Positions 9,260-64,000 of a stretch of 64,000 bases of DNA are shown piece after piece. Position 1 is the first letter of the stretch; each line of letters begins with the position of its first letter. The notes under the pieces are model-generated. The model saw nothing but the letters and a program-made list of their open reading frames with translations. It did not search any database and was not told the DNA's origin. Source of the DNA: Lingula anatina (Eukaryota > Animalia > Brachiopoda). The position numbers were made by a program, and so were the translations under genes. The stretch lies in assembly GCA_051362555.1 (NCBI GenBank), contig CM120646.1, positions 22,940,001-23,004,000 of the forward strand. The letters are read 5' to 3'.

Positions 9260-12200
9260 ATCATCCTCCTTAGTAAAGTTGCCGTTCTTGTCATCCATAT
9301 GTTCTGGGCTACTGTAGCCATCATTGGGGGCGCCCTCTGCATCTGGTCTGGAAGTGAAAGTGAAAGGAGATAAACATATGATTTGTGTGCAGACAATTCA
9401 AGAAATAATTCATTAAATGACACAACAATTAAGAGAATAAAATGAGATGTCAATGCATTTTTACATTACTTAGGACATTTATCTTTATTGAATAGATTTC
9501 AAGAGTATCATTGTGAAGAAACACCCATTTTCTTTTCTTTTAACCTTTATAATGAAAAGCAACATACAAATAAAATACTAATTAAACACAAGTGGGTGAT
9601 GTAATTTTCTAATGTCAGATGGTTAGATGGTCATATTTGGTGACAGTATTTGACAATGTACATTAATTGAATAAATGATTATTGAGATTCAAAATTAATT
9701 TCTTCAGCATTCTGATCCCTCGTCGACTCGATCTGTATTAATTCAAAGTCACAGTCCAGTCGTATACAGTTTTTATTTAACCCCCTCCCCTCACTACTAA
9801 AAATCTTCTCTACGCATATTTCCTCGTAATTATAGTATTGTGGTTCTCTTTGATCATCATTAGGGCCTACGCTAACCTTCCCCATCATATACCAAACTAT
9901 GTGAGTGTGTACAGTGTAAATGTCAGTAATGTGGGGGTAACCTTCTCCACAGAGAGCCTGACATTCAGGCAGGGTCAGGACTACAGGTGGAGCTACTACC
10001 TTGTCTTTACTATGGTATTTGGGTGTTGAGAGAGAAAACAGCACCCTGGTCTAAATATACACCTCAGGACGGTGCTGGAAAGTGGTGGTTTTTCAGAAGC
10101 TTTGAATGATTTTGTTCATCCCTCGTGTGCAGTGTGAATTTGCAACTATTTACTTTTATTTTCTGATCTAAGGAAAAAGGTTTTTAACTTTCGTTTTCTG
10201 TTAGTAGTAATCAAAATTTATTTTAGTAGTTTACTTAGAAACATTTAATAAGTAAATATACAAAACAACAGGTTGTGAGTGAAAGTTTTGATCATTTTTG
10301 GGACATAGTCTTTTAGCCAGTCTGATGCACATAATTCATAACCAAAGGCCTAACTAATTAATTAATTTATTAATTACTTCTGACAACAGGGCCAAATATA
10401 GTGTTGGGATGCTCATGTTACAACTTGTTGGGGAGACTTGGAAAAGAAATCAATTTAACAGGTGTATTAAAAATACGCACAATTTTCTGGGTTATCAATA
10501 AACACGCTGATTTTCAAGTTAAAAGTGACAACATGAAATGGAAATTGCATGACAACATGGTCTGAAAACCAAACATCATGGAAGGTGATTAAGCATGCAC
10601 CACTGCACACCATCTGCAAATAAAAGCACGAAGACACGGAAAAAAGTTGTTTACTGATCACCGAAGTCTTTGATTTTTTTTATACAATCAACCAAAATAA
10701 ACATAATTATCTTAGGGTTGGGCACAAAATAAATAACCAAAGTGATATATTTACTTAAACTTTCAATAACAATTCAAATCAAACATGAGAAAAAAATATG
10801 AATAAAAACGGAGGAGACACATACACAGAAATCATGGTGATGAATAATACGGTTGTCCAAAAACTGATAATACGTAGAAATGTTGTGATGAATTCATTCT
10901 GGGCCATTCCATAGTAGTCTTGAAGAAGTATCATGGAATGGCCCTATAACAAATAATCTAAGATACCATACCTATCTTTGAATACACAGGCTTCATAGGT
11001 AGCCTGCTCCTGTGCATGTCTTAATACAAATTGGATAAAAATCACAATGAAAATATGATACAATCTTTGGTAAAATGTTAAATATTATGCAAAAAAATTA
11101 TTTCTATAAACCAAATTTAATCTCGTAGTCCATGGTACTTAAAATACATATCACCTACCAAAAGACCCATCTTGATTTTCTTTTTTATGAAATGGGCATG
11201 ATAGCTGCTGCTGGGAAAGCTAGCTAAATATAAAGCTTAAGCATGCAAATTTGTTTTCTGGATAGAAAAACTTACCAGAATCTTACCAAATCTGTTGAAC
11301 TTCAGATATTAAATAGCAATATAATCCATACAAACAATTATCAGAATGCCTCTTTTTGTCAATGAAGTTCCTTAAAAATGATCATGCAGCTAGTGTAACT
11401 ATTAAGTCTAAGGCTCCATTCCCATTTATACCTTCCAAGCTGTCACATCTAACACAATTTCACATCCAATGCAATGTCACATCCAAGGCAATGACACATC
11501 CAACACAATGTCACATCCAATGCAATGTCACATCCAACACAATGTCACATCCAACAATGTCACACCTAACTCAATGCCATCTCTATATTGTTTCTGCAGA
11601 ATTGTAGTATTCTCCAAGGAATCTTAATAATCTAATGCAAAATAATGCAAGCAATAAATCTGATAAACAAAGCTCATTTGAAGGGGCCCCTTCAATGTGT
11701 ATTATGCTACTGCTTTTGTTAAGGATAGTCAAACGCCATACTTTGTCATTATAAAAAAGCCTGTTATCTGTGCCAACAGAGACAGTCTGCCAGGTCAGTG
11801 TCATACAAATTTGACACTCCTTGTGACTGGTAAAAGGCATATGGTGCAATAGGCAAATGTGTTGGCTAGGTTGCAATCAGCTGACTATTCAGGTATTCAG
11901 CGGGGGATAGATTATTACCTGAACCACTTAGCGAGCACTTTCATAGCTCAGCAATGCCTGGGATATCTTAATAGCAACTTTGGCTCAGGCCAGAAAGCTT
12001 GTATTTTGTGACAAATATTTGCATTGATTGAAATGATTTGTACTACCAAATTACTGTAGTAAAGAAATCAGGTGAAAAATAACAGCAGCTACTTATTAAT
12101 ACCAATATGAAAGAGGTTATAGCACAGTGTCAGCATCTGGTTAAAACATAAGATTCTGAAGCAGAGATAGCTCAATGACTGAAAAATAGAATCATAAACT

Positions 12201-14796
12201 ACCAGAAGGTAATGCCAAACACACATATTAGTAGTTTTAATAACCCATAGCAGGATGCAAGGGAGGATAAAAATGTAACAAAAAAGGAAAACATCAAAAA
12301 TATCAGCTAAGTGACAATACTTTTATGCCTTTTTTTTTTTAATTGATTATTCTACCAGAAGAAAAACTGGTCAAGTTATCTCCTGGTTTTCACAAGTACT
12401 AGGCAAATAAAAATGCCAAGACCACTAAACATTTTCTTATATTTTCTCCCTCCTCCCCTCCCTCCCCCCCCCCCTCCCAGTAGACATAAGTCATTGCAGT
12501 GGGCTGTTGCAGATGCAGGGAAATGTTGAACCTTGTAGAGAGGGTGTCTGTCAATCAAGATAGTAAAAAAGAAAAAGGTGAAGGAAGAACAATTGAATAA
12601 GAACTCTACTTACACAAGGGAGTAGGTGTGCCCACTATCAGTGTGAGGACTGAAAGAAGCAACAAACCCCAAGTCATTAGAAAATTATATAATACACAAC
12701 AAAAACAAAATACAGAGACGCATTTCATTATTTCTTTTTTAATCCCACAACTGTTACGACTAATATTTGTTGCTAAACCAAAAGGGAAAAGCTGATGTAA
12801 TATATGTTTGTTTTTACTTCAACAAAGCAATTGTACACCTGTTAGAAATATAAACAGAATGAAGCCATACAATACACTGCTGTACACATATTTAGATATC
12901 ACACAATATGGAAAGTTTGGGTTTCTATTTTGGTTTCACTTTCACATCTTGAATGTAAGTGTAGGTGAAAATTCTCCCTATCCCCCTTTTTTTTTCATTT
13001 TCCTGTCTCGGTCACCTTAGACCCCATTTCCAGAGATAAGATCGATCTACTTAAGATCGACCTAACTCCCTAGGGGTTCACGCTAAATAGCTGTCAGCCG
13101 AGCGGGCACGAAAGTTAATTACCCCCTTCCAGTTTGTAGTAGGCGTGACGGACATTTAAGCCGGATTATCTGACAGTAATCTAGTGAGACTCCCCGCGGG
13201 GATAGATCGATCTAAAAGCTCTGGGAATACTCCCTTAGTCCCATACCAAAAAGGACCGTCCGCCCTGCCCCCCCCCCCCCCCCCCCCCCCCCAAGCCTTC
13301 ACCATACACATGCATGATATTTAGTACTACTCATGCATAAATAATGATGAAAATTAAAGAAGGACAGATACAAATGTTAGTAGGATTAGTATTAAATGTC
13401 AGGACGGCACCTGGGGGTTTTCTTTACTTCATTCTAGAACATTTTCTCCACATCTGCATTCTGTTTTGCCTTTTACCTTCACAGATATTTGCAATTGTAT
13501 CAATAATTCACTACCGAGTTATCAGAATATAATTTCAGTAACTTGGTCTCATCATTCAAGGAAGAGAAATGTTCTGGACTCGTACTACGTACTAGAAGTA
13601 CTAAATGATTTAATAGCTCAAGTAGATTTCTTTGCAAGATTGCTTGACTATGTTGTAGCTGTAACAGTTCCAGTATTTGCACAACTGGTCTTGGACACAC
13701 ACACACACAAACACACACGGCCAATTAATTAACTTAATAACACAGTAGAAAGTGTACTTGTTGAAAACTTGTGAAAGGAGTAACACCCCCTGTGGCGTAA
13801 TGACATGTTACAACCTGTCAAAGTTGACCCCTCTGCTCAAGTGAATCACACGCTGTGAAACTAAGGGACCATTCTCATACCTAGATCGATCTAGCAGGAT
13901 CGACCCACCTCTGAGGAAATCTCAATAAATTGCATTCGACTTAAACGGCTTAGATGTCTGGCATGCCTACTGAAGCTGCTAAACAATAGTTTTTTACCCT
14001 CTTACACTGTCAGTTGGCATGCCAGACATCAGAGCCGTTCAAGCTGAATGCAATTTAGCAAGAAACCCCTCGGGGATGGGCCGATCCTGCTAGATCAACC
14101 TAGGTATGGGAATGGAGTCATAGAAACAATGACTAAAACAGATCACACAAAAGATAGACACGAGTTTTCACTTCGGCCAGATACTATTTTCAGTATCAAT
14201 AAAGCACACTTTGCTTTTTATTAATAATAAAATATACATCTGTCCCACCTGTAAAAATTTCCTATTGACTCAGAGATTCTATCAATAACAATTCTTACGC
14301 TTTCACTGTGTACTTTTTGTTGGAAACTAGACGGTTTATTAATAATTTCTACATGAGATAGTTGGTATTTTTCTAGTCTCCAGTCTGGCTAGGAATTCCC
14401 CTCCAGCTATGTGTACAATGTGATGCGCCTGACCTTGCATTTTCTCTGTGATTACAAGCATGGCGTAAATAAACACTATAGCTTCCGCAGCACAGAAAGA
14501 TAAATAGTGGAAATTCATATTGCTTTTTCTCTCTTTCTTTCTCTCTCTCTCTTTCTTTTTTCAGTGGCTCGCCCACATAAAGATTTACCCAACAGTTAAT
14601 GGATGAGTCACAAAAAATAAGATGGCTTTTTTTTGAAGTTAATAACTTGCACATTTAACTACAAGAATAATGTTCTATTCACCTTCATAGATTCTCACTT
14701 TCAGAAGGTAGCAAGACTGAACCAGGGCTCCACAAGATCTCTGAACAGACATTTGTAGATCTGGAAAACTACTTGTTCCTGTCCAAAATCACCTTT

Positions 14797-14849
<53 letters not shown>

Positions 14850-15128
14850 GGGGGGAGAGAGAGAGGCTCAGGATGCCAGGCGATAAGTAATCTACATAAA
14901 TTACTTGCATTTGCAGGCAACTTTGACTTAGTAAGTAAATTCTCTATGACAGGAGGGGCTTCAGAGATCATTTCCCTGGGCAAGTAATGATAACATCAGT
15001 GGCAAACAGTCTATTTTATCTCAGGTGTCATCTCCTTGTGAACAGTAAACAACCACTGGGAGAGCTGCTTATAGTTTTTGATTAATCCAAAAAGTATGTG
15101 TATCCATTACCTACTAGTATGGTTATTC

Positions 15129-15165
<37 letters not shown>

Positions 15166-17920
15166 GCACACACACACATACACACACACACACAGAAGTA
15201 ATTTTTGAATGCAGCAGGCTTTTTGTATCTTTGTATGTCTGCATATCTTTCATAATGATCTTTTTTCAAGTGATGCCTGCCATATATATGTATGTGTTAT
15301 TTCTATTATTGCCACTCCTCAGTATTTCACCATCTAAACACACCTGGGTATTCTGACATTCAATAAGCAAGGTCTTGTCTTTTGTGAACTCCTGGACCCT
15401 ATCCACTTCTATCTCTTTTCACTTCAACTCGCTGTGTCTATTCTTAACTTAAACAAAACATTAAGTTATTTTTTACAGACCCTTTGAAGGCAGACTTCCT
15501 TCAACCAGGTGCTTCCCTACCACTGGTACCAAGTACCTGTGCTTTAATGGGTAAACAACTGCCTCTTAAGAGACCACTTCTCTGAGCAGGTGCCTGTTTT
15601 TGCAGATAACATTTAAAATGTTTACAAAAACAAAATGCAACAGAAGCAATGTTTGGGTGGTAAAGGCATATATCCTAGGGTGTAGCTTTCATGTGTTTTT
15701 TTTTTTTATCTGATCACACCTCCAACTTTCACACCCGTGATCTTTTTTTTTTTTTGATAAAAGTAGTGTGTATCACTACACCAGGGGAGATCTGACATAG
15801 ATAAGGATCACTGCGAATATAAAACCAGTGGCAGGTAAGTTGCCACATGTTAACACACCCTGGTAGACTAAATAGAACACTTTGAAGTCAACCACTACAA
15901 GGTGATATTTTTAATCTTAGCACCTGGAGCAAAAAAAAACATAATTATTACATTAGAATCCAACCACAGCATGAAGTTTTTATCTCAACATCTGAACGTG
16001 TTAAAATAATAAATAAATAGCCTAAAATAAAGTGTTTTCCAAACTGTACATATTAGGCACCGACTCCGAGATGGTTGGTACTTCTGTTGTGGAATGATAC
16101 AAATCTCTTACCCTGCAAGGGGCTACACAGTTTTTTTATATTGCACAGTTTTATATTTATTGCACTGAGATAAAATGTTTTCTTTTTTTATGGAGAGTAA
16201 CTATATATAAAGCAATATGACATTCCAGACAGCTGATGCAGAATGTTTCATTTTCAGTTTCGTGTTGATATATGAAAAAATGAGACCTATTTAAACTTTG
16301 TGAGATATTCCAAAATGACAGAGAACAATGAAGTAAATCTTTTGAAAGTGGGTGTTTGATATTTTTGAAAACGAAAGTTTACTCATTATCTCAAGATGGT
16401 GAGTCAGGGCCTGAGTCCTAACTTTAGAAAACAATACCAGTGTTTTATTTTACAAACTCCATGAAGTGTGACAGCAAGGTGTAAAGAAAACTTCCGCGTG
16501 ACATGTCAAAAACCTAAGCTTTGTCTTCAGGGTGTGAAGTTACTGCACTGCAGGCAAGAAAATGACTGCCGCGTTAGGAACATTGATTGTTCTTTGTTCC
16601 TCCTTTATTAAGAGACTTTATTACCAGCTGTCTTATTACAAATGCTCTGTTATATCACTCACTGTTCTCTGCTTATTGATTGGATCCATGTCCATATTAA
16701 TAAAGCATGGATTTAAAGGTATGGCAGATGTCATGCTTAGGTTTACTGTCCCGTTTTCTCTCAGACAAATACGCCATTGCACGGGGAACAATTAAAGGTC
16801 CTCGCTTCATAATGAAATCTAGAAACTTTCAGCTCTGATTTCTTTTTGCTACTCGCTAGGCAAACAGTCACTTCGTTTACTTCATAGATCTGTTTTTCCT
16901 AAAACACACAGTCTGGTCAATATGCCATTCTTAGAAAAAATAAAAATAGACAGGCTCTCTTTTTATCTGAAGAAATATCAATAAATTCAGAGCCAATATT
17001 TAAGATCTTTTTAAAAAATTCTAGAAAGCTAACAAAGTTAAACAATACAGAAACTTTTGTGGTAAATATTTTTTCCTGACAAACTGTGATCTTTTAATGA
17101 ATATTTCATTTCAATCGTTCTTTTTTCTTCTTCTTTTTTCATCCTATCGCAAATCTGAGGAAATAAAGTTTACATTACCAGGAAAAACATACTAAAGACA
17201 TTAAAAATTGACAGATCCTCTACCAAACACTACCTTCAGTTAGAGTGACCCTGATACAACTTAAACAGAAAGTTTTTTTGCTTTTTTTTTGCAAAAATAA
17301 AATCATACAACTATCCACCAAGTTAGCCTCGTATCTTAAAACAATACTTCACACATTCTATAGTAAGTCTAATCTGATATTAACCATCTTACAAGTTGCT
17401 AAATACCGCGTGTAGTGAATACTGAAGGTAAAACACGCACATACACACGCACACATGTACAGACAAAATAATTAACAGAGACTGACGCACATGTGCAGCA
17501 ACATTCACACCCTGAACATATCATATACTAGTGCTAGTTTGATATATATACTACAACTCAAGCCACAATTCACCGATATTTTAATTACTCAATCTTTACA
17601 ATGGGCAAAAATTTTCAAACATTCAGATACATAATTTTAGGATCACAAACTCATTTTTCTATATAGGATTTGTGCTTTATTGAATAGAAAAGAACTATAG
17701 AGCAGCATGTTTTTTTCCTTTAAATTTGGTTCCTGCCACTCAACAGAAATGTTCTAATTCTAAGATTTATTACTTCAAAAACACAGTATCTGTGAAATTC
17801 ACAATTTTCCCGATTGAAAAGATCAAGTAATTACCACATTCTAAATGGTATCTTAGCTAAATAAACTGTGGCCACTATTATACACAGCTCACACTTACCT
17901 CACATTGGAACGGCTTGTCT
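9260..17920 (-). CDS. Gene A, putative cytoplasmic-tail micro-exons (no kinase; Tyr motifs)
   Basis: Candidate exons 17920-17899 (22 nt, tttcag/gtaagt), 12649-12614 (36 nt, tttcag/gtaagt), 11019-10972 (48 nt, ttaag/gtatgg) and 9347-9260 (88 nt, ttccag/gtaagt) splice in frame after the TM exon. They give ...EEK-ETSRSNV-SPHTDSGHTYSL-VHAQEQATYEACVFKD-RPDAEGAPNDGYSSPEHMDDKNGNFTKEDD. I found no kinase motifs in 1-19400. Confidence 0.6.
11443..11580. repeat. Minisatellite, ~17-bp unit AATGTCACATCCAA(C/T)(A/G)C
   Basis: About 8 imperfect tandem units with no unique spacers. Confidence 0.85.
13019..13236 (-). mobile_element. ~215-bp MITE family 1 (PIF/Harbinger-like); other copies near 25250-25480, 37653-37880, 42597-42808
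   Basis: Four dispersed similar copies share GGGAGTCTCACTAG..GCCTAC..AAGGGGGTAATTAAC..GGGAGTTAGG, with TTCCC/GGGAA-containing TIRs and TTA/TAA-like flanks. Confidence 0.65.
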
Positions 17921-19426: not shown

Positions 19427-22003
19427 CTTTTTCTTCATCCCTTGTTTTGTGTTTCTTCTTGACACAGTAGGTGTAGGTGACACAGGCCAAGACAATAATC
19501 ACAATGACCCCCAGGATGGCCCCTATTATCCCCCCTATGGCCTCTCCAGATAGACCCCCCACTGTGGATCCAGTAGTTGGTGCTGAAATGAAGAAAAAAT
19601 TGTGGGTAATCAAGTCAACAAAAGCAGCATTTCAAATAAAAAGAAAAAAACTTTTGTAAACAAAATCCGGGTGTGTTGATTTAAAAAAAAGTGACTCCCT
19701 TTCATATCAACCAAGGAACTCAGCAGTAAAGTGTCAGAAGTGGTAAAATTATTTCTACTTACATGACAGTGTAATTCTCAGGACCTTGCTTGGTGGATCA
19801 TTCAACTGGTTCAAAATGTTACTGGCCTGGCACTCATAGTATCCAGGTTTCTGAATGTTATTCAGGTTAAGAACAGAGGAGTTATCGCGATTTCCACTTC
19901 GTGCTTCTCTGGTGTTGGATAGCTCTTCCCGAAAAAACCACTTGAAGTTGGGTTGAGGGTCACCAGTGGCTGAGCAAATGAGAGTGACGGCTGAACCTTT
20001 GACAAACTCCACACTGCCCATTGCTGAGTCTATGATGGGGAGGGCACCTGTGGTGGTATAGGTGATCTCAGGGTTGCTGGCAGCAGCTGAAATATTGTCA
20101 TGTTATTGTATCACAGTGTACAAGATTTTTGTCTAAAGTGAGGCATATCTAGACTTTGCCAGGACATAAATTTTTGCCGATTTTTAAAAAGCTTTGGTAG
20201 AACTATCCACTATTAACTGGCACAATCATTATGATAAATAAATGGTCAGGACAATCAAAATCACCATCAAGCTGGTGTGGCACATACATACATACAGATC
20301 AAAATTAAACTCCTTCCAGGGTTGAATTTATTTTAGCCAAATTACTGGATAATGTCAGTAAAATCAAAAGTCAAAACTTATTCAATGCTAAATTTCCTGA
20401 AAGAGGTACCATTTTTCCCCCATTTTCTTTCTGCATCATTGTAAACCAATTAGAATTTTAAGTTAAAGCTTTTCACTAGAACTATGTTAGCATGAGTACA
20501 GTACTGCAGCAAAATTCTTTCCTTGATGTACTTAACTGATTTCTGTTGATTTTTACTTACTCAGTGACACACTGGCCGACTTCTGTCCAATCATACATGT
20601 AAACTGTGCGCCATCATCAGAGGCTGAGACATCTACTCTCAGCTCACTCTGTCCATTATATGTACAACCATCACTATTCAGGACAGGGTCACTTGACTGT
20701 GCCTCTGAGGTCCTATTTTGTTGCTGACCATTCAGAGACCGGTACCATGTGATCCCCTTGGCTGGACGTCCAAGCTGACCAGAGCACATGAACTTTGTTG
20801 ACCCCTGGTCATTTAATTGCTGGGTGGTCAAGATAGGGTTTTCACTGGGCTCCACTGGAATATGTACACATATTTGCTTATACTAGCTATAGTACATTGT
20901 AATTGAATGAATGAAAAAATAGCAATCATAACCAAGAATATTGTACACAAACCATACAGACATCTGCAAAAGCTGCATTAAAATACAATTATTGAAATTT
21001 TTGTGAATTACTGTTATCTAAAGGTAAAAGCAGACATATATTTTCGTGTAATTTCTAAAAACTTAATTAATTCAGAAAAAAATTGAATTTTATGATTTTT
21101 CTCCACAAGGTATTCAGTATATATTCATGTAAATCTTTATTTTCTCTTGACGAAGCACAAATTTAAAATAATCCTCAATCCTCCCAGTTCAATTCAATTA
21201 GAAAGAAGTTAATATTATAATTTAAAGCAATAATAACTCTTCCTTTGAGATTCAAAATTCCGCAAGAAATACATTGTAAACAACGCATGCAAATATATTC
21301 TATTGCATTTTACCACTAAAACGGCCGTTATTGTAGTAAAACTAAAATTTGTGCTTGTCAATAGGGCTTTCGATGCCTTTCTTCCCTGTCGTTAAGGCAA
21401 CCGTTGCCAATGACGTTAGGGTGTCATGCGGATTCTCGCGTTCATTCGAGACCAAAATAACTTCTGGCGGCAAAAGCCTGATGCAATAGCAGACGTAAGT
21501 TGCGAGTTTTTGTACAGTGCGTCGGATAACGAAAAGCCAAGAATAGCACAGATAGCACACATTGTAGATATAAATGCATTTTGAGCAATAAGACAAATAT
21601 ATATTATGAATCTTATATTATTGTTATGGTGTTGTTGTTGTCTGCTTTTCCCGCGGTTTTAAGTAGGTCAACAGAAACTATCGCTCGATATTGTGTGACT
21701 ATGCAATGTCAGAGAGGGCTCCGTGAGTTAAAATCTCTTAAGAGATTTTAACAAAAAACCAAACGTTTAGGAAAAAAACCCTGGACCAACTTTGAATGCA
21801 GGAATGGGGTCGCTGACCATTGGTAAGTACGGGAAAATTGCCGTTTACTCGAGGAAAATCCAATTTTTGGCCAAAACGAAGAGTTATTATGACTTTAATG
21901 AAAACAAAAAAGATCCAACATTCAATTTTAACACACACGCTGGATGCTGCACCCCCCCTACACACACACAAACACTCACACACACACACTCTCTCTCTAT
22001 CTC

Positions 22004-22037
<34 letters not shown>

Positions 22038-22374: not shown

Positions 22375-22454
<80 letters not shown>

Positions 22455-27401: not shown

Positions 27402-27443
<42 letters not shown>

Positions 27444-45457: not shown

Positions 45458-45470
45458 AGTACAGTTAATA

Positions 45471-50578: not shown

Positions 50579-50579
50579 A

Positions 50580-52078
50580 AAAGTTTGACAATCATAAGTA
50601 ATATGGTTTTCCCATGATGGTCATCATGGCAGCAATACCCAAAATTGTGTTTTCTTCTATTTTGATGCAATATTTCATAATGCTTAACAGCATAAAGACC
50701 ATCAGTTTTTAATAATAAAATATACGTATCGTGGATTTTCAGAAAATGTGACTAGCATGGGTCTTCAAGCCCAAGGTGCTTCTAAGTCACACCTTGAAAT
50801 TGCCAATATGTGAAAAATTAAATTTTCACAAAAAACTGATTAACTGCCAGAAAAATTTACCAAATAGACTGCACTGCCTAATGAAACTGTATTTTAGTCC
50901 CATGTTTCTTTCCTGTAAGTTTGAGAACAGTAAGTGACATAGTTTTCCTTAAATGGTCATCAAGGGAGCAGTGTCCAAAATAGGGGTTTCTTCAAATTTT
51001 GATGCAATATTACATAATGTTTAACAGGATAATAACCATCAATTTTTAATAATAAAATATTAGTATCATGGATATTCAGAAAATGTGACTAGCAAAGGTC
51101 TTCAGGCCCATGGAACTTCAAAGTCACAAATTGAAAATGCCAAAATGTAGACAAGACAGTACTGTCCTGAAATGGGTTTATTTCCATTTTTAACACTTTT
51201 TTAACATAAAACAAAATAAACATTTTACTGCCATTTTTATATGACCAACTAAGAAAATTGATGAGATGGGAAAAGTATCAATAGAACAGTGTTAAATGTC
51301 CAATTTCCTCCATTCTGAGATTCTGAACATAGTGGATGATTGAATCTGACAAACTGCAATGATATGAGTTTATTTCCATTTTTGACACTTTATTACACAA
51401 TACATGATAACAAGTTTACCATGTTTTTTACATAATCAACTAACAATGTTGTAAAGATGCAGGAAATATCAAACAAACACTTTAAGGCATCTTATTAGTT
51501 AAATAATGAGACTGTTAACATGCCTAATAATTGAATCTGAGGAAATGTGAAAAAAAAAGTAACTTCTAAAATAATGGCCCGATTATGCTGATTTTCGAAC
51601 TCAACCTGCATTTTAGTAAGATTGACCACTCCAGTGAGTATAATTACAATTGGCCAATCCGTTTTTCTTATATTGTGTTATCAGTGTTGCATTTATATTG
51701 AAAATAGTGAAAAAACAGCATAAATTCCCTAAAAATGGCCCAATCATGCTGATTTTCGAACTTGACCTGCGTATTATGAATATTCATCAGTTCTGTAAGT
51801 TTCAAGTCAAAAGGTAAAATGGTTTTCCACTTATCGTGTTATCGGTGCTGCATATATGCTAAAAAAAGTGAAAAAACAGCATAAATTCCCTAAAAGTGAC
51901 TCGATCATGCTGATTTTTGAACTTGACCTGCGTATTATGAATATTTATCAGTTCTGCAAGTTTCAAGTCAAAAGGTAAAATGGTTTTCCACTTATCGTGT
52001 TATCGGTAAAAGTGCACGGCGACGACAGACGCAGATGATGTCTATATGTACAGACACATCTGTGTCTGTACATAAAAA
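50580..52078 (-). mobile_element. Same HINE-like element, copy T3, inverted relative to T2
   Basis: Reverse complement of T2 (48946-50310), ending in ..GACGACAGACGCAGATGATG..TGTACAGACACATCTGTGTCTGTACATAAAAA. Confidence 0.6.
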
Positions 52079-52236
52079 ATTGAAAAATGGCAAATCAACA
52101 GGGGAAGACAAGGTAACCAACGAAATGATAAAATCAGGGAAGGATTATCTTATAGATGTAATTGTAAAATTGTTCAATATCATATACAAAAGTGCTAAGT
52201 ACCCATCAATATGGAACAAGGCATATATAGTCCCTA
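52077..52236 (+). mobile_element. 5' fragment of the same LINE ORF2, in the opposite orientation
   Basis: Encodes KLKNGKSTGEDKVTNEMIK..WNKAYIVP, the LINE RT-proximal motif that normally runs directly into IHKSGD..NYR (found at 56471 on the minus strand). Confidence 0.85.
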
Positions 52237-54062
52237 CGGTAATGTGCCAAGCATTTCGACGGGCCCAGTCAATCCGACCACAAAAATTATTTTATAAAAT
52301 TAATTTTTCTGGACTCAAACAATTAGTCCATACGTCAAAATCATGGGACAGAATTTTTTTTCTTGTTCCGATTGTTCGACCACATCGTCGACAAGACTCG
52401 GTAAATTTTCAAGCCAGTGAAATAGATGCTGCATGCCTCGGCCCTTTGTCAATTGTTGTCCTTTCAATAGCTCTCGTCAATGAGGAAGAAACAATTAATT
52501 GAAGATCTAATCTGGAAGCATGACGTACCTGTCTTTTCCTTTGTCCCCGATGACAATAATAGTGCTTATAGACATACAAATTTTGCTATTAAGCAGACTT
52601 GCCCTCGCTGACTGATTCATCACGCCCGTAACTGGGGCGGGGGGGGGGGGGGGGGGGGTAAAAAAAAGGTCTATTCTGGATGAAACCAAATATCGACAGT
52701 GGGTAAAATACGTCGTAAACACCTTCATATAGACCATATATCGCGTTTGCTAGCAATAAAAAAGTTTGGGAAGAATAAGCAATTTATTTTCAAGTTCGAT
52801 TGAAATATATATGCAGATGGGGAAACGTTCTTGAAGTCAACACAGCAAGATCTTACATTTACTACAATCGACCGAAAGATCAGCGGGATCGACCGCCCAG
52901 ACTTCTTGGCGCCAAATACCACGCGCTGTCAAAATCTGATGAACACGTGTCGCTGTTCACCTACATGGATAACTGATTTGTCAACAATAAAAATGACGTC
53001 TTCCTTAACTCCATGGGAGCTTCATAGAGAGTTCCACTGGGCATTTACGTTACCTGTGAGTCACTTTCTATTTCCCTAGATGCATGAAATGTTGATAATA
53101 TTTAGCGTAATCCACGACGAACTCCATTCCTGTGACCCCTCCCCCAAAATGGGACCGTCTTCATTAACATGTGGTTTGCGCTATGCTGGAACAGACCAGA
53201 TAAAACCAGTCTCTCATTTCTGCATGTGCTCAATTCTCACGTCAAATTATAAATGCACCTGTTTTGTGAAAATTATGGCAAGTAAATGCTTTTTTTACGT
53301 TCGGGTTGTATCAGTGGGGTTTTCAATATGCACCGTGGTTTGTGCACAGCGAGAGTATATAAGTAAGAAAATCGGAAGAATGCCAGCAAAATACTGTATG
53401 TCTATCGGCACAGGTACGCTCCGTATTTTGCCTTTACTCAATATGTTTTTATATGACATGCTTTTTAAATAAAATACTTAATAGTAATTTGAAGTTACAC
53501 TGATTTCCGTTTGAGTACCAGTTGGTATTCTTTGGTACGGGTGATTGAATTTTCTTGGAAGTACGTACGTCTACGCCTCGACGCTGAGCAAGCCTTGCGG
53601 GTTGAAAACAACTGATCTCAGACTGGTAAAAAATATCAATTCGGTTGATTTCAGTTGTCATATTAAAATTCAAATAGGGCGTACGTAGATCACATAACTA
53701 GTTAAAGTCCACTTAAGCGCATCATGAAAGTGATCGTAGGTGAGGGAAATGTATAATTAAAAATTATAATTGTCGTCTTTTTTAATGTTAAGTAATGTAA
53801 GCACATATTGTACACAGCAAAATAAGTTTTCAGGAGGATAAAACATGCCTGAAACACATGTTAGGCGAAAATTGCGGCTTATCTTGCGTAACACTTCCGG
53901 TAAAATGCAATACTTCCGGAAAGATGGACGTTTTGGCAGATGCCCCTAACAATCCGACGATATCAAAGGTTTCCATTTGCTGTATTTTAATCAATTCGAC
54001 CAAACTGACATTTCCATGAAATTAATTAATTAATCTTGGTCGAATTGTTTGGCATATTACCG
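52237..54062 (+). mobile_element. Non-autonomous TA-flanked DNA transposon (Tc1/mariner-type), copy E1, 1826 bp
   Basis: Imperfect TIRs CGGTAATGTGCCAAGCATTTCGAC / GTCGAATTGTTTGGCATATTACCG, with TA on both sides (52235-6, 54063-4). No transposase ORF. Confidence 0.75.
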
Positions 54063-54208
54063 TAACTGCTCAGGTACTGCCAATTGGCAGGTCCAGTCTA
54101 AGTCCGCTTGACAGCAATCAAGACAGTTAATTGCTATGGCCTTAATCACGTGGCTAGTTTCAGCAGATAGCGGAGCCTTAGACGGGTTGCGTAACGAGCA
54201 GTTATTTT

Positions 54209-56471
54209 TCAATTCAATTCAATTCAATTTATTTCTGTACTGGTACATAGATTGTCATGACCTTGTACAATATGATATACAAATGACGATACAATACAGT
54301 TAGTGCATTACCATCTTTTTATATAATGAAGATTAGTACTAGTAAAATTACTCATAAAATATTTTATCTAAGCAATGAGATAAACCTGATTATAAATTTA
54401 CCATAAACATACTATAAACATGTTACACAAAAAGAATATGTTTTTAAAAAACTTAAAACCACCGTTACATAGCTGTTTACATGGCTGTTCAAGGCCAGTT
54501 TGATGACATTGATAATTACGATTAATGACAATTACATAAGACAGATAAGTAAATAAGTTACACAGATATAAATACTGTGCCATGTTCAGTCCCACTGCCG
54601 AGTCACTTCTCACAACAGTGGGACCATACACTGACATTTTAAGGGATATGCTAAGAGTTACCAAGCAGAGCAACCATTTCACTTCTTTTCTTGAATGATT
54701 TGATTATAAAGTTGGAGAGGGACACCAAAGTATCTTTGTTGGCACTGTTAAATACATGGCATAATTGACTGTCTGGTGACCTTGAATCAGCTTTTAGGAA
54801 TGAGGATTTACTGAAAAAGGTGACTCGGTCTGTTTTGTACATTGGGCATTGGAATATAAAATGGTATTCATCCTCAATTACCCCTTGTGTGCACAGGCGA
54901 CAGATTCTGTCGCACCTTTCAGTTTTTGGCCTGGTGTGCCGCCCAGTTTCGATGTGGAGTTTATGGTCACTAAGACGTAGTTTAGCAAGGGTTGACAAGG
55001 TGTCGTAATTTGTTATTTTATCAACATAAGTTGCCCTTTCACACTTTTAGTGAAGTATACGGAAGAGAGATAATTTACTGTTGGCTTGAAGTTTGCTATT
55101 GCATATTTGGGTAAAGTGGTCAGTTTGTCTTTGTTTGAAAATTGTGGTGAAGTTTTTTGGAGGTGACTGGCTAAGCCACACATCACCAAGGCCAAATGTG
55201 AAAAGGATTTTTCGGATACCCTCAGACCATGACATACAAGCTGGTCTGAGTGTGTGGACTGCGGGTGGGACATAGGGTGTCAGCAATTTGTAACTATTTA
55301 TCTCTTGTATGTATGCTTGTTTCATTATATATAGTGTAGCATCAGACATTTGAATAATTTTACACCATAGTTTGACAGATGCAAACTGTATTTTTGCATA
55401 GAGGGGAAGGCGGCCAAGTTCAGTGTATACACCATAGTTTGATACGTTTTGATGGAGGCCAAGGATTTGTTTGCAAAATTTTAGGTGCAACTTTTCTGTA
55501 GGGCAGTTATCCGTTGACACCGAGTAGCCCCATATCTCTGAGCAATATGTAAGGATTGGGGAAATGAGGGTATCAAATAATTTCTCTTTTAAGGATGTGT
55601 TAACATTACTCTGAAGTGGAAGAGACTTGGACAGACTGAAGAATGCCTTTGTAGCACGTTGTAGGAGATTATTTTTGGTTTCTGTTAAGTTTCCTGATCG
55701 ATTTAGAAGGAGACCTAGATACATGTATTTGTTGACCTCTTGGATTGGTTTTCCATACAGAAAAAATTTTTCACTGTGAGCTTTTAATTTTGAGTTGAAA
55801 ATAACTATTTTAGTTTTGGTGACATTTACAGTCAGTCTCCACTTGTTACAGAAATTTTCTACTATTTCCAAACTTTGCCTTAGCCCATTGGGGGTCTTGG
55901 ACATAAGGATGAGGTCATCAGCATAAAGTAAACCTTGTATTGGTATTCCATTTATATCTGGACTTGCAGCACTTTCGCCATCAATTGATCTAAGAAGGTC
56001 ATCAATAAAAATATTAAAAAGAAATGGGCTCAATGTGTCACCTTTGTTTTACACCTAGTGTTGTATTAAAGGCTGGGGAGATACCACTACTTGTCTTAAC
56101 ACATGCTTGGGAGTTTTCATACATGCTTTTAATGTTTTTGTACATAAGTCCTCTTATTCCTAGAGTACTTAGCTTGAACAATAGTCCATTCCTCCAAACA
56201 CTATCGAATGCTTTTGAAAAGTCGATGAAACATGTGTATAATTTTTTCTTTCCTTTCATAAATTTTGTAATAATGGACTTAAATATAAAGATATTATCTG
56301 AAGTACCATGACCATGTTTAAACCCAGTTTGATGAGGTAGGGGTACCCCTTGTTGGGATGCGTGTGCTTGAATTCTGTTTAACAGGACCGAGTTGTACAG
56401 CTTTCCGAGGCAGCTTGTAATAGATATTCCCCTGTAGTTGTTAACATTTGATTCATCACCAGATTTGTGGA
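54209..56471 (-). mobile_element. Non-LTR retrotransposon (LINE; RTE-X/CR1-L2-like) 3' part with frameshifted reverse transcriptase
   Basis: ORFs 56487-56038 (IHKSGD..NYRGISI..FIDFSKAFDSV..GVKQ), 56033-55047 (SPFLFNIFIDDL..LLYADD..YLG) and 54998-54651 (LHIETGRH..RICRLC..EDEYHFIFQC). The 3' end has AATAAA plus an (ATTGA)n tail near 54209-54235. The clade call is tentative. Confidence 0.9.
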
Positions 56472-56473
56472 TA

Positions 56474-58354
56474 CGGTAATATGCCAAACAATTCGACCAA
56501 GATTAATTAATTAATTTCATGGAAATGTCAGTTTGGTCGAATTGATTAAAATACAGCAAATGGAAACCTTTGATATCGTCGGATTGTTAGGGGCATCTGC
56601 CAAAACGTCCATCTTTCCGGAAGTATTGCATTTTACCGGAAGTGTTACGCAAGATAAGCCGCAATTTTCGCCTAACATGTGTTTCAGGCATGTTTTATCC
56701 TCCTGAAAACTTATTTTGCTGTGTACAATATGTGCTTACATTACTTAACATTAAAAAAGACGACAATTATAATTTTTAATTATACATTTCCCTCACCTAC
56801 GATCACTTTCATGATGCGCTTCACAAGTTGGACGAGTATTTCCCCGGAGACAGGTGTTGTAAACAAAGGCCGGTAGCTTAAGTGGACTTTAACTAGTTAT
56901 GTGATCTACGTACGCCCTATTTGAATTTTAATATGACAACTGAAATCAACCGAATTGATATTTTTTACCAGTCTGAGATCAGTTGTTTTCAACCCGCAAG
57001 GCTTGCTCAGCGTCGAGGCGTAGACGTACGTACTTCCAAGAAAATTCAATCACCCGTACCAAAGAATACCAACTGGTACTCAAACGGAAATCAGTGTAAC
57101 TTCAAATTACTATTAAGTATTTTATTTAAAAAGCATGTCATATAAAAACATATTGAGTAAAGGCAAAATACGGAGCGTACCTGTGCCGATAGACATACAG
57201 TATTTTGCTGGCATTCTTCCGATTTTCTTACTTATATACTCTCGCTGTGCACAAACCACGGTGCATATTGAAAACCCCACTGATACAACCCGAACGTAAA
57301 AAAAGCATTTACTTGCCATAATTTTCACAAAACAGGTGCATTTATAATTTGACGTGAGAATTGAGCACATGCAGAAATGAGAGACTGGTTTTATCTGGTC
57401 TGTTCCAGCATAGCGCAAACCACATGTTAATGAAGACGGTCCCATTTTGGGGGAGGGGTCACAGGAATGGAGTTCGTCGTGGATTACGCTAAATATTATC
57501 AACATTTCATGCATCTAGGGAAATAGAAAGTGACTCACAGGTAACGTAAATGCCCAGTGGAACTCTCTATGAAGCTCCCATGGAGTTAAGGAAGACGTCA
57601 TTTTTATTGTTGACAAATCAGTTATCCATGTAGGTGAACAGCGACACGTGTTCATCAGATTTTGACAGCGCGTGGTATTTGGCGCCAAGAAGTCTGGGCG
57701 GTCGATCCCGCTGATCTTTCGGTCGATTGTAGTAAATGTAAGATCTTGCTGTGTTGACTTCAAGAACGTTTCCCCATCTGCATATATATTTCAATCGAAC
57801 TTGAAAATAAATTGCTTATTCTTCCCAAACTTTTTTATTGCTAGCAAACGCGATATATGGTCTATATGAAGGTGTTTACGACGTATTTTACCCACTGTCG
57901 ATATTTGGTTTCATCCAGAATAGACCTTTTTTTTACCCCCCCCCCCCCCCCCGCCCCAGTTACGGGCGTGATGAATCAGTCAGCGAGGGCAAGTCTGCTT
58001 AATAGCAAAATTTGTATGTCTATAAGCACTATTATTGTCATCGGGGACAAAGGAAAAGACAGGTACGTCATGCTTCCAGATTAGATCTTCAATTAATTGT
58101 TTCTTCCTCATTGACGAGAGCTATTGAAAGGACAACAATTGACAAAGGGCCGAGGCATGCAGCATCTATTTCACTGGCTTGAAAATTTACCGAGTCTTGT
58201 CGACGATGTGGTCGAACAATCGGAACAAGAAAAAAAATTCTGTCCCATGATTTTGACGTATGGACTAATTGTTTGAGTCCAGAAAAATTAATTTTATAAA
58301 ATAATTTTTGTGGTCGGATTGACTGGGCCCGTCGAAATGCTTGGCACATTACCG
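56474..58354 (-). mobile_element. Same TA-flanked DNA transposon, copy E2, inverted, 1881 bp
   Basis: Near-identical reverse complement of 52237-54062 (the ORF-track translations are identical or nearly so). It differs by a 58-bp indel (56822-56879) and poly-C length. TA at 56472-3 and 58355-6. Confidence 0.8.
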
Positions 58355-59288
58355 TATGCAAACAATTACCAGCCATGTAATCAGCCTTGAGATTCTATTA
58401 CAGGGTGACATCAGACCAAAATGACTGTCTAGATCTGTCCATTTATATAGAGACATACCTGTGAATATCTGTGGAAAATCAATCTGTCGCCCTGGTAGAG
58501 GGTATATATATAGATCTATACCATTTCCAATAGATTGTGCTAATTACCAGACAGTACAGTCACTTTGCAATCCAAAGCATGCATGCTCTCTATAATGAGA
58601 AGATTTAAAGGGGTCCTTTGGGTCAGTCTGAGCCAACTCCCATGGTCAGTGAATAGCCAACACTTCATAGGAAATTACGTATCTTGAAAAATAAGTACCA
58701 TGCATGGAACTTTTGACAGTCAAAATGGTTTTTATGAGCGCATTCAGAACACTGGACTGATTGACCCCTGGATCAAATATGGCCACTGACTTAAAAACTT
58801 GCCGCTTAATTCACGATTAGACACTGGATAGATTCCCCTCAGAGATTACTTAATTAACAAGCATGCAAGTGGGTCGGCCATATTTGATCTGTGGATCTGT
58901 TAGTTCGCTGTTCTGAATACTCTCTTTTAACGCTCCTTGCTAAAAATAAAACTGCTATTTGGTTGCTATGTGTCACAAATAACAGCGCTACTCCCGCCCT
59001 TGAGTGGATATTTTAAACTCGTTTTGGCAGACTGAATATTTTGCTTTCAAATATGAGTATATATTCACTCTGATATACATGTATCTCATGATATACCTCG
59101 ACCAGGGCAACAGATTGATTTTTCACAGATGTTTCGAGATAAACAGACAGTCATTTGGCTCTGTGTGGATTTTCCCGTTTTTCTTTATATAATCTGCCAC
59201 CCTGGTATAGAGGGTATACTCATGATATTGGGCAAAGCTACAATGTCTACTGATGACCGAATGAGACCACATGTATTTGAAATATTCT

Positions 59289-61911
59289 TCAACATTTTTC
59301 TTCCGCATTGTACTTGTCGATGTCCTCGTACAGTTTTTCCTCAAACTTTCCCAGAGTAAGAACATCGCTGTCTGAGGCCAGGAGGACATCCAAGGAATTA
59401 ACGATGTCTTTAAATGTTGAACGTGCACTTGGGACCTCTTCCCAGCAGGACGACATGATGATGTACCTGGAGTGAGAAGTAACACACAGGGAGTCGGACT
59501 ATAAGTAATTGAGACATTATTGCTCATGATTCAGTAAAATTAAACTTGCCAAGCATTACAATTTGTAATACACATACATATTTATATATCAAAATTAACA
59601 TTGTATACTTACATGCCCAGTGAACAGTGTGGTGGTTGTGGCATCCGGTATCCTTCAGTTATAGCTTCCATCACCTGCTTGGCTGACATACCAGGATAGG
59701 GACTGGAACCTAACCAATATGAGCACCAGTGAGAATTGTACTCATGTAAAATACTGCAAAAATTGTCACTAATAAATAAAAGAAACTATACTTAGCAATC
59801 TGATCAAGATTACTGAAGATACACATTGTGTGAATGAAAATTCAGTGCCAAATATTACACAAATAATAATAATGATAATATTAATATTCAGACAGATAAT
59901 AATTATCATAACATTTATTATTTACTTATTCATTTACTGTTTGCACCACATTCCTGGGATACAGAAGATATTTATTGAAAGGATACAAGATATTGAATAA
60001 CAATCTGTAATTCTCAAAATTAAAATACAACAGTCATACATGGCATCAGAAAAGCACAATAACCCCTTGAACAATAGAACACAAGTGATCACAGTTTCAC
60101 AATGCTTGTATGCTAAACCTTCTTTCAATATAATAACACGTACTTTCCAAGACTTTTATGAGCTTCACCATCTGGCAATCTTACCCAGTGTGACAATCTC
60201 CCAGAGCAAGACGCCATACGCCCAGACATCAGACTGCGTGGTATACATGTTGTCAAACAGAGCTTCTGGGGACATCCAGCGAATTGGCAAGCGTCCCTGT
60301 GAAAGAAAAACATAAAACGTACCTTATATCTGTCAAGTGGTTATTGCAATTGTCATTTGATAACACCTGTCTATTTACACATCCTTACAATGCATTAAAA
60401 AATATGCAGCTATACTTTAATTGGCAAACACTAAATATATGCTGCTTAAAATTGTACATCCCCTGGGGTTGATTGAGGCCATCTTCTGGGTCTTCCGGAA
60501 TCATGTAAATCACGAGCAGTAACACTTCTTGAAGTCTGCTAGTACTGATAATGGATAAAATAACTATCCAAGATTGCTAATGCTAAGTTTCAGGTCAGAA
60601 TGCAAAGTAAATATATTTTGGTTTTTATGTACAAAAGCATTTACTAACCTGCGATTGTTTTTCGTAAGTGTGGGTTTTGATGACATCCTTTGCAAAGCCA
60701 AAGTCCGAAATCTTGCAGGTCCTATCTTCAGCTACCAAAATGTTTCGTGCAGCAAGGTCTCGGTGGAGAATCTACAATGTAAATATTGAGATTGTTGATC
60801 TCACAGTGTAATGAAAATAATAGCACATCTTATTTTCTTTTAAAGTTTATTAGAAAGTGATCTTTACTGACTATGAGGCAAAAAATGGTAATATAGAAAA
60901 TGGACAAAATAAGCAATAAGAAGGAATTATCTGCTTTCATAAGACAATTGTTTATCCTAGCTTACCGCCATTGATGAAAGATATGACATTCCATTAGCCA
61001 CATCTAATGCAAACTTTATCAGATCATGTGGTGTCAAGGAGGAGCTGATCCCATGTAAATTCCCATAACGCACTTCCCGTTTTGAACGGTCATTTCGTAG
61101 GTAGTCCTGGAGATTTCCATTTGGAAGGTACTCGACAATAATCAATGGCACAGCTAAAATAAATCACTTCAATTTATCTTCAAAGAATTTGTCAATTTAC
61201 TTTAAGGTTGGAAGTTTACCATTTATATACAGGTGTTCCAAAGGAAGCTATTGAAATTGCAAAAAAAAAGCAGAAAAAATTCTGAAGTAAACGGGTTCAT
61301 ACTCAGTACTTTACTTTTATGGTGCGTATTCTTCACCACTGACGTGATTATTATTAACGCAGTTATATGAATTCAGTGCTTCATTAACAGTGATTTGAAA
61401 ATTTATAAGATTTGTTTTAAATAACATGTCTACATACCATCATCTCGAGTGCAGGATCCTAAAAGCTGAACCACGTTTGGGTGAGTTTGGAGTTTCAACA
61501 TCACTTTCAGTTCTTTCATCATCTCACTGCAGAGGGATGTGTCACTTGTATCTACAAATATAAGTTTATCTTATTGAAGAACATGCTGAAATCATCTGAC
61601 TTTTAATGGACTGAAGTATCATATCGCAACTATTGTTGAAATCAATATTTACCCTTTGCAGTTTTAACAGCAGCAATGCTCCAATTGTATTTTCCATCTA
61701 GATTGAAAATGTTGCCCCTAAAGACTTGGCTAAAAGCCCCGCTTCCTATCTTTTCCATCAACTTGATATTCTGTCTTCTTATCTCCACATCTCTCTCCAG
61801 AATCTCTGCATACAGTGGCTCTTCCATCGGCTTAAACTTTAAGATTAAATTCATATAAATATCAACATCAATACAAGGCATCCAGATGAGACTGGGGGTC
61901 TCAAACAAACT

Positions 61912-61962
<51 letters not shown>

Positions 61963-64000
61963 TCAGAAAAAGTTTAGAACTGGGTAAAATTTGATCTAGA
62001 AACAAAAAGGCTTAATGGCAAAAGGTGTATTATTTAGGAAAAGACCACCCCCACTCTGAAATGGCAGGCTACGGACCTGAATCATAATTTCCACAACCTC
62101 TTATACAGCATTACATGACATTATGTAACATTACCTTTTGTTGCTCTGTGCTAAGGTTGGTGTTGACAGGCCTCTCGTATGCCTCCTCATTACAACTTAT
62201 CTACAAAAGCAGGAAAACAAGCATTAATACTTTTTTAAACAGATTTATTTCTACAATAATGATATATACAAAATAAATAAATTCAGAGCAGGCGGCATGT
62301 CGCCACATCATAATGTGCTAGCTGCGGTATTATAATAAATTGTAAATAAATAGATTAACTATAATTATATAAAGTAAATAATAATGCATTATTTTAAATT
62401 AAAGTAAATAAATGAGTTAAATATGATAATATAGAAGTAATAATAATAATTGTGATAACACGATTAGTACGCATATAAATATTGGTGACAGCAACAAGGA
62501 AGGGGGCCTAGGCACGGGGAGATGTATGCGGGAAGTGATGGACTAGCTGATCAGGAGAGGGAGACGGGTGGGTGGACTTGTCAAAGCATTTAAACATTAT
62601 CAATTAAAAATGTCGAAACAATGTCAAAGACTTAATACTTCATTAATACTTCATAATTAAGGACATTGTAACCCTTTATTATCATCCAATTACCAAAAAT
62701 GAGTTTTTTTCCTGCATCTAATTATTCAATAATGCAGCTATCTTTGTGCTAATTTAAACAATGAAAAAAACCCTCAAAATATAAAATATCAGCGTTTATA
62801 TTTTTTTCGTTGCAATGTATAAGCACAGGCAACTCAAAACTTTAATCATTAATTTAACACCTTCCTATTTTGAGGTGAGATAGCAATTGGTATGGGGCAT
62901 AACTTCATCCCTGATTTTCATTATAAACAAAGGCATTATTTTGCTTTATCAAAGATAAAATCTGAACTAAGACTTTTAAGAAAACATTATCACTGGCAGG
63001 GTTTTGGAGTACTAAATGGTGTCATTAAATTGGAGCTGAAATGGTGACCGTGGGTGCTCAGGTAAAAGAGAAATTTGAGAAACTGATTTTTCAGTTTTTT
63101 TACCCTAAAATCACAACAATGACTTCACCCATAAGATGACATATAAGTAATTGTTAAATAATCTAGTCACTGAACACTGAAGATCTATTACTCAAAAGAA
63201 TGTAAGGCAAAAATAAGAAGTTTTGGTCGAAGGGTGACAATATCCTTAACATTTCATTCTTTTAAAATTACAATCACATGACATTATATAATATTCATAC
63301 TACACTATTTCACCTGTAAATGGTTAATTTCAGTTTATTTCAAAGATAAAAGTAATAGCTGTTATCACATGCAACCCATTACAAAGGGACTGTACTATAT
63401 ACTACAGTATACTGTAATTCACAGACTTTATGACCAATCTTTAATCCAAACCCTGCATTTTTGAGTATGACATTCACCTCTCCACTCAGAAAACTCTGAA
63501 GCTCACTGTCTTCAACTTCATCCTCTGCGTTGTTTTCTTGCGACACTACAATGAAAAAACGGATGGGCTTTACACACATGCATCTTCAAATGGGGGGGAG
63601 GGGGGATCATGGAAAATTTGGGAGCAAGTTTTATGAGCAAAACATAATAGGAGGAAATGAAACAGCTTAAATGTTTAAATTACAGAAATAAATCTGAAAA
63701 GTTTGTCACTTCAAAAATTAATTAATATTTTGAAATGCATAAATCGGACATAGTCATATTGGGTGAAAAACTTTTGAAAATTATTGAGAGGTCCATTCTC
63801 AAGTTTGAGATTTTCAAAGTGAAAAAATGTACTTTTGTTTTCCAATAAAATTTTCAAAACCAACAAAATTTTCAAATTTTTACAATAACAGGGGTATATC
63901 CATTATAAAGTGTATAATGAGATTTAATTATCAGTTGATTTTAATCTAATTTATTTATCTGGATTCAAAATTACTTTAACCTTTTTCGCCAACTCTTGTT
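59289..64000 (-). CDS. Gene D (5'-partial): second receptor tyrosine kinase, close paralogue of gene B
   Basis: Exons >64000-63981 (end of TM exon, TRVGEK), 63545-63478, 62200-62135, 61836-61653, 61551-61438, 61153-60966, 60771-60649, 60296-60185, 59709-59613 and 59466-59289. Kinase exon lengths match B exactly and the introns are homologous. [11 protein letters not shown] and LPIRWMSPE are intact; the protein ends [15 protein letters not shown]. Confidence 0.9.
62233..62631 (-). mobile_element. Probable 5'-truncated retroposed insertion
   Basis: Flanked by the direct repeat TTAATACTT (62224-32, 62632-40). The minus-strand end has AATAAA followed by an A-run. Absent from the B intron. Confidence 0.45.
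62661..63245. mobile_element. TTAA-flanked non-autonomous DNA transposon (Kolobok-like), 585 bp
   Basis: TTAA-GGACATTGTAACCCTT...AAGGGTGACAATATCC-TTAA; absent from the homologous B intron. Confidence 0.7.

Follow-up and report, generated by a model that had tools for sequence, protein, structure and literature searches.

Our analysis of a 64,000-nucleotide (nt) stretch of the genome of the brachiopod Lingula anatina (assembly GCA_051362555.1, contig CM120646.1, positions 22,940,001 to 23,004,000; hereafter the window) revealed a real, lineage-specific cluster of immunoglobulin (Ig) receptor genes. Sibling proteins of the cluster end in a tyrosine kinase (genes B and D), in a tail that bears two immunoreceptor tyrosine-based motifs, one inhibitory (ITIM) and one switch motif (ITSM; gene A), or without a membrane anchor (gene C). 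Whether these brachiopod-specific, nectin-shaped V-C2-I receptors work as a paired accelerator-and-brake recognition system is, in our judgement, evenly balanced. Pairs of activating and inhibitory receptors are central to vertebrate immunity, while their reach into invertebrates is an open question, for which the locus provides a compact brachiopod test case.

All four genes proposed in the original prediction were confirmed: every modelled intron is GT-AG and in frame, and internal stops are absent. Self-comparison and six-frame reading yielded three copies of the signal-peptide/V/C2/I exon set and two kinase gene bodies, and exon models built from coordinates bore out that this set is common to A, B and C. 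RefSeq proteins of L. anatina, which derive from another assembly, were used as a check; as they match the window genes at 97-99% and not letter for letter, they can serve as independent gene models.

Gene A (minus strand) has nine coding exons and encodes 484 amino acids (aa) without an internal stop. The original prediction let it end in unrelated tyrosine-containing micro-exons; the micro-exons are real, but a terminal exon (3661-3792), lying past position 9260 where the predicted gene stopped, had been missed. This exon encodes an ITIM, IVYADL (residues 450-455, Y452, window 3768-3751), fitting S/I/V/LxYxxI/V/L, and an ITSM, TEYAEI (Y478, window 3690-3673), fitting TxYxxV/I, the patterns being those given in PMC8631942. 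The two tyrosines are 26 residues apart and the ITIM precedes the ITSM, which is the layout of PD-1 and BTLA. For BTLA, the same source gives tyrosines Y257 and Y282 (25 apart) and the ITIM IVYASL, with which IVYADL agrees at 5/6 positions, including an alanine directly after the phosphotyrosine (pY+1); pY+1 alanine is linked there to phosphatase docking (PMC8631942). When the 104-residue tail of A was shuffled 200,000 times, in a test drawn up after the motifs had been noticed, both motifs arose in 0.22% of cases, and in the same order at 20-35 residues in 0.03%. The RefSeq model P0002 has an identical 92-residue tail (0/92 differences between the two assemblies). Neither an activation motif of the immunoreceptor tyrosine-based kind (ITAM) nor a Grb2-type YxN site was found among the five cytoplasmic-side tyrosines of A. 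Searches of Pfam and PDB returned nothing for the last exon, which occurs only once in the window.

RNA evidence covers the tail of gene A: four of nine same-species raw-read runs were aligned over the region 3550-17400. Two GT-AG joints on the minus strand were recovered in 4/4 runs, namely 9260 to 3792 (125, 165, 9 and 21 reads) and 12614 to 9347 (22, 22, 5 and 2 reads). The reading frame, the splice sites and the RefSeq model, rather than reads, support the link from the transmembrane (TM) exon through the 22-nt micro-exon. Since the RNA-spliced tail closes with the ITIM/ITSM exon and a stop, A does not end in a kinase, and splicing to a kinase outside the window, which the original prediction had allowed for, was not what the reads of these runs gave. 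Nor does A look like the decoy suggested earlier; with its spliced ITIM and ITSM it resembles a signalling receptor. The parts of gene A, all on the minus strand, are as follows.

24392-24470, minus strand: exon 1, signal peptide (gene model; matches RefSeq P0002)
23789-24112, minus strand: V-set Ig exon (Pfam V-set, E 2.6e-10; 0/108 residues differ from P0002)
20561-20854, minus strand: C2-set Ig exon (gene model; Pfam C2-set_2 on P0002)
19763-20086, minus strand: I-set Ig exon (gene model)
19427-19582, minus strand: TM exon (gene model; 91% nt identity with the TM exon of B)
17899-17920, minus strand: tail micro-exon 1, 22 nt (GT-AG, in frame, matches P0002; no read coverage)
12614-12649, minus strand: tail micro-exon 2, 36 nt, with Tyr409 (model and RNA joint to 9347)
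9260-9347, minus strand: tail exon 3, with Tyr423 (RNA joints at both ends)
6739-6765, minus strand: minor cassette exon of 27 nt that carries an in-frame stop before the ITIM/ITSM exon is reached (AG/GT flanks; 4 reads in 1/4 runs, run X7 only)
3661-3792, minus strand: last coding exon with ITIM, ITSM and stop (model; spliced in 4/4 RNA runs)

Inclusion of the cassette exon 6739-6765 would yield either a form of A lacking the ITIM and ITSM or a degraded transcript.

Gene B (minus strand, 15 exons, 789 aa) continues, as had been proposed, from this exon set into a tyrosine kinase, and Pfam identified V-set, CD80-like C2-set and I-set domains and the kinase in its exons. RefSeq P0008 is identical to B at 779/789 residues over the whole protein. 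Gene D is the second kinase copy, its ectodomain lying beyond the window as stated in the original prediction; it is on the minus strand and starts at the window edge with the last 19 nt of a TM exon, from which 382 aa can be read without a stop. Catalytic motifs of B are GxGxxG, AAVK, alpha (13 protein letters not shown) and LPIRWMSPE; both B and D keep the Gly loop, the AAVK lysine, the alphaC glutamate, a further motif (11 protein letters not shown) and LPIRWMSPE. The hallmarks of an active receptor tyrosine kinase (RTK), i.e., Gly loop, VAIK lysine, alphaC glutamate, HRD, DFG and the tyrosine-kinase-type P+1 loop, are present in both, with GSGAFS as the Gly loop of D, and the two kinases look intact by sequence. 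They have diverged at 0.044 nonsynonymous (dN) and 0.211 synonymous (dS) substitutions per site. The TM segment of B contains no charged residue. The exons of the two genes are given below.

33205-36436, minus strand: gene B ectodomain and TM exons, comprising signal peptide 36436-36358, V 35918-35592, C2 34861-34568, I 33963-33640 and TM 33360-33205 (model; Pfam; RefSeq P0008)
31387-32238, minus strand: gene B juxtamembrane exons 32238-32177, 31917-31852 and 31452-31387 (model; the last two are a tandem duplicate)
28063-30913, minus strand: gene B tyrosine kinase, 7 exons, Cad96Ca-like (model, Pfam, protein comparison)
59289-64000, minus strand: gene D, comprising the TM exon end 63981-64000, two juxtamembrane exons and 7 kinase exons (model; RefSeq P0006, 374/382 identical)

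D has one copy of the 66-nt juxtamembrane exon that is tandemly duplicated in B (31387-31452 and 31852-31917). Just upstream of the C2 exon of B, the start of that exon is present a second time as a 42-nt stretch (34898-34939). The RefSeq isoforms of B fall into two types, P0001/P0008 and P0003/P0012, which differ across signal peptide, V, C2, I and TM and have one common kinase. This implies two ectodomain cassettes in front of one kinase in the RefSeq assembly, either from variation in copy number or as an artefact of assembly; in the window a single cassette is present.

In a kinase search, among the best 120 of 1875 matches, those outside Lingula and outside multi-kinase proteins were mostly arthropod Cad96Ca (47-51% identity), together with a starfish Ig-RTK (P0031) whose kinase is similar (51% identity). 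The Cad96Ca matches scored about 325-345 bits and FGFR1 and RET in PDB about 260-269 bits, a rough comparison, as the searches were separate. A tandem activation-loop YY.KT is the motif of FGFR kinases. RefSeq names the kinase genes FGFR3-like, and this identity was rejected for B and D, as they have no YY.KT motif and FGFR1 scores below Cad96Ca. Similarity to Cad96Ca/Stitcher, a Ret-like RTK, extends to the kinase insert and the C-terminus. However, Cad96Ca of arthropods has a cadherin ectodomain, while only Ig domains were found in B by Pfam, and the Lingula kinases are therefore not Cad96Ca proper. In a tree of 19 rows, which had no FGFR or Ret outgroup, seven Lingula kinases formed one clade (100/100) separate from arthropod Cad96Ca. 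Three Lingula proteins of this clade carry quite different multi-Ig or Ig-FN3 ectodomains; with one kinase clade on unrelated ectodomains, several ectodomains appear to have acquired this kinase in the Lingula lineage, which fits grafting.

Gene C is inverted and stands head-to-head with B. It encodes signal peptide, V, C2 and I in 348 aa without a membrane anchor, and thus stops before the TM segment, as had been noted originally. Its I exon lacks the splice donor kept by A and B and reads six residues further to a stop; no copy or remnant of a TM exon was found behind it in the window. RefSeq P0004 (341/348 identical) is likewise 348 aa long without TM, and its four accessions suggest transcript variants.

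38668-43617, plus strand: gene C, comprising signal peptide 38668-38749, V 39295-39621, C2 41914-42207 and I 43274-43617 (model; RefSeq P0004)

The read-through tail SPATWW (43596-43617, plus strand) resembles the start of the TM exon of A in protein and not in DNA. RefSeq C ends in SPATGS, and the resemblance may be a coincidence or point to a 3' end that differs between the assemblies.

The original prediction spoke of one ectodomain with different outputs, which was overstated: paralogs are 96% identical in C2 and 94-98% in I, but only 71-72% in V and about 55% on the V front face. Accordingly, dN is 0.16-0.17 in V and 0.008-0.025 in C2/I, and dS 0.20-0.35 and 0.11-0.19, respectively. V-set receptors usually bind ligand through the face formed by BC, C, C', C'', FG and G. 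Front-face columns were taken as the BC loop, C, C', C'', the end of F, the FG loop and G, with the strand layout checked on an AlphaFold model of modest confidence (mean pLDDT 65.6, from a five-row alignment). Of the 41 variable V columns, 33 fall in the 55 front-face columns and 8 in the other 53 (Fisher p 1.4e-6). Front-face dN/dS (0.58-1.25) is higher than in C2/I (Fisher p 0.0002-0.003). Given the differing V faces, a separate ligand or ligand variant for each member is probable, rather than one ligand read through two arms.

Introns of A and C align at about 76-84%. The V-C2, C2-I and I-TM introns of B gave no alignment to those of A, nor did its V-C2 and C2-I introns to those of C, while the C2 and I exons of B are 95-97% identical in DNA to those of A and C. 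Near-identical exons between unalignable introns suggest, by sequence comparison, exon-limited conversion and continued homogenisation of C2 and I. An extra conserved cysteine occurs in V (Cys107 in A and B, 108 in C) and another in C2 (Cys198/199; 200 in C), as also in a distant Lingula protein, P0265; the two could possibly form an inter-domain disulfide.

All four siblings lend themselves to joint expression, and Y452 and Y478 predict phosphatase docking by A. In the proposed mechanism, a ligand on the V domain would cluster B or D and activate the kinase. Ligand, or the nearly identical C2-I stalk of A, would bring A beside B or D, and phosphorylation of A on Y452 and Y478 would follow; phosphorylated A would dock a putative tandem-SH2 phosphatase of the SHP2/Corkscrew type, and the kinase signal would be damped. 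C would be secreted and act as a soluble competitor for ligand. Since the members probably differ in the ligand or ligand variant that they read, go and stop would be separate cues for the cell to integrate. The activating arm here needs no adaptor. Tail swapping at the phase-1 intron that follows the common TM exon, together with duplication, is the likely origin of the family, and the locus illustrates how a new signalling pair can arise in this way. A stronger version, which we hold tentatively as possible and no better than that, is that a vertebrate-style checkpoint was built independently in a lophotrochozoan: a PD-1/BTLA-like ITIM and ITSM receptor would directly oppose siblings with a grafted Cad96Ca-type kinase, diversified V faces would set specificity, the homogenised C2-I stalk would couple partners, and the secreted sibling would tune the threshold.

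Several observations weigh against an accelerator-and-brake system. The V difference between paralogs, about 28%, is unlike that in classic pairs with a common ligand, and the V face yielded no significant positive selection, the front-face dN/dS being indistinguishable from neutral (binomial p 0.16-0.85). Phosphatases of the SHP2 type often promote the signal from RTKs to ERK, so that the tail of A need not inhibit. Private changes in the I exon (replacement vs silent) number 5 vs 5 in C, 1 vs 4 in A and 1 vs 3 in B, which fits decay of C. Among the relatives, the RefSeq model of D, P0006, begins with FN3 in place of V, P0005 has no V, and P0007 has a broken, truncated kinase with the start of the N-lobe missing. 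The basis for B, C, D and the ectodomain of A is DNA anatomy and RefSeq models.

Part of this evidence would be expected if the genes were by-products of birth and death, i.e., an old ITIM-type adhesion receptor (A) and young kinase chimeras (B, D and others) that have exons in common through shuffling and conversion and act independently, with C as a decaying truncated duplicate. We consider this unlikely, though a serious contender. The broken or V-less relatives (P0005, P0007, P0009-P0011, of which P0009-P0011 are kinase fragments in RefSeq), the replacement changes in the I exon of C, about 14 kb of repeats adjoining C and the spread of the kinase clade over several unrelated ectodomains all fit it. 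However, C is open over 348 aa in both assemblies and has four RefSeq accessions, and the near-identity of the C2 and I exons, although three of the four B introns cannot be aligned to A, suggests continued homogenisation. A still less probable explanation keeps the partnership of A and B and reverses its sign: B would phosphorylate A, and A would dock SHP2/Corkscrew and raise Ras-ERK output, in the manner of docking proteins of the PZR or Dos/Gab type. Downstream of many RTKs, SHP2/Corkscrew has a positive role, and the tandem motifs suit bivalent SHP2 binding; yet the motif layout and the pY+1 alanine match inhibitory checkpoint receptors, and the lack of a Grb2-type YxN site in A also argues against a positive scaffold.

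Allorecognition, which the original prediction had listed among its options, is disfavoured, and a locus of the Hydractinia Alr kind, serving allorecognition or gamete compatibility through allele-specific V domains, appears highly improbable. Lingula is a solitary animal. V differences between the window and the RefSeq models number 0/108 in A, 0/109 in B (1 for the second isoform type) and 3/109 in C, in a sample of two assemblies; V thus varies between genes and not visibly between individuals, and this near-invariance argues against allorecognition. The likeness to Alr lies in an invertebrate cluster of V-led receptors with V/I-set Ig domains, tyrosine motifs (ITAM or ITIM tails) and possibly secreted forms, but Alr alleles are highly polymorphic, their fold is FN3-like, and no intrinsic kinase is mentioned in the accessible part of the Alr report (10.1101/2022.03.04.482883). 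For the accelerator-and-brake system itself, the role may be immune, neural or adhesive.

Among known systems, vertebrate paired receptors (SIRP, Siglec-5/14, CD300) share clustered paralogs with related ectodomains and opposite-type tails; in contrast to them, the activating member in Lingula has its own kinase and not a charged TM with an ITAM adaptor. The idea of a paired-receptor system in the original prediction was strengthened by the ITIM and ITSM tail of A, but the V domains differ on the binding face. With PD-1, BTLA, SIRP-alpha and Siglec receptors, A shares a V-set-led ectodomain, an ITIM and then an ITSM about 25 residues apart, and the pY+1 alanine. The cluster would work in a similar way to vertebrate paired receptors and PD-1/BTLA-type brakes but does not belong to those families, as it has no ITAM-adaptor arm and gave no orthology, its matches outside Lingula being generic Ig proteins. 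The V-C2-I rod is that of nectins and CADM proteins: the top Foldseek matches were nectin-1 (E 9e-14) and nectin-3, on the model with pLDDT 65.6, and RefSeq names A and C "cell adhesion molecule 3-like". However, identity to nectin/CADM is 15-18%, and A ends in the ITIM/ITSM exon; we know of no kinase-bearing nectins. The database names FGFR3-like and CADM3-like mask the architecture of the cluster.

The nearest precedent in layout, likened by layout and not by homology, is the sponge Geodia cydonium, in which an Ig-RTK also stands alongside kinase-less Ig receptors. The Ig domains of the Geodia proteins RTK, SAML and SAMS are presumably near-identical, and SAML presumably has an ITIM. In two reports, the Ig-domain RTK occurs beside kinase-less long (SAML) and short (SAMS) Ig adhesion molecules and is tied to self/non-self recognition and grafting (PMC11926128, PMC7153836), with two Ig domains (V-like and C1) and polymorphism over the whole ectodomain (PMC11926128). 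The Lingula cluster differs in its three Ig domains, the divergence of paralogs on the V face, the tandem ITIM and ITSM, and one anchorless member. An Ig-RTK beside kinase-less Ig receptors was known already; siblings with a kinase, with an ITIM and ITSM, or without an anchor are added here. The remark in the original prediction that the system was not recognised as a described one stands insofar as no paper on this locus was found in titles and abstract openings, subscription papers being mostly outside reach and an earlier mention possible; Geodia provides a partial precedent for its layout.

Close orthologs outside Lingula were absent from three protein searches (149 candidates, 7998 scored, and the best 150 of 2044), the non-Lingula matches being generic Ig proteins at about 23-35% identity. 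The I-set exon of B found 7 proteins among the 149 candidates, all from L. anatina; the second search gave 8 of the 7998 scored (7 Lingula proteins and a fish CD22-like protein), and the third placed two Lingula paralogs on top, followed mostly by long multi-Ig proteins. Of 149 stored matches of the second and third searches, 54 had a predicted TM segment, and 15/54 had an ITIM or ITSM in tails of <250 residues. As such tails are common in Ig receptors, the unusual feature here is the kinase-bearing sibling. A feature-based atlas search gave Fasciclin-3, MAG, CD22 and Siglec-like clusters, which are leads only. The one V-C2-I relative in the third search, the V-C2-I-TM protein P0265, likewise comes from Lingula. 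It is distant (26% identity to A in 383 aligned columns), and behind its TM lies a short tail with tyrosine but without a kinase, which weakly favours a kinase-less ancestor. The P0265 model starts with an apparent C-terminal piece of a tyrosine kinase, which hints at another kinase/kinase-less neighbourhood.

Repeats are abundant around the genes. A nest at 43974-52078, including a 2.8-kb imperfect palindrome (49047-51840), lies right behind the point where C breaks off. Further along, a frameshifted reverse-transcriptase fragment (54654-56502, minus strand; Pfam RVT_1), similar to those of long interspersed nuclear elements, sits between 1.9-kb inverted repeats of 97% identity (52235-54064 and 56472-58356). 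Short palindromic repeat families resembling miniature inverted-repeat transposable elements were found at 4671-4876, 13016-13228, 13858-14124, 25248-25793, 37661-37885 and 42595-43070; the copy at about 13016-13230 shows very deep RNA coverage, drawn from copies elsewhere.

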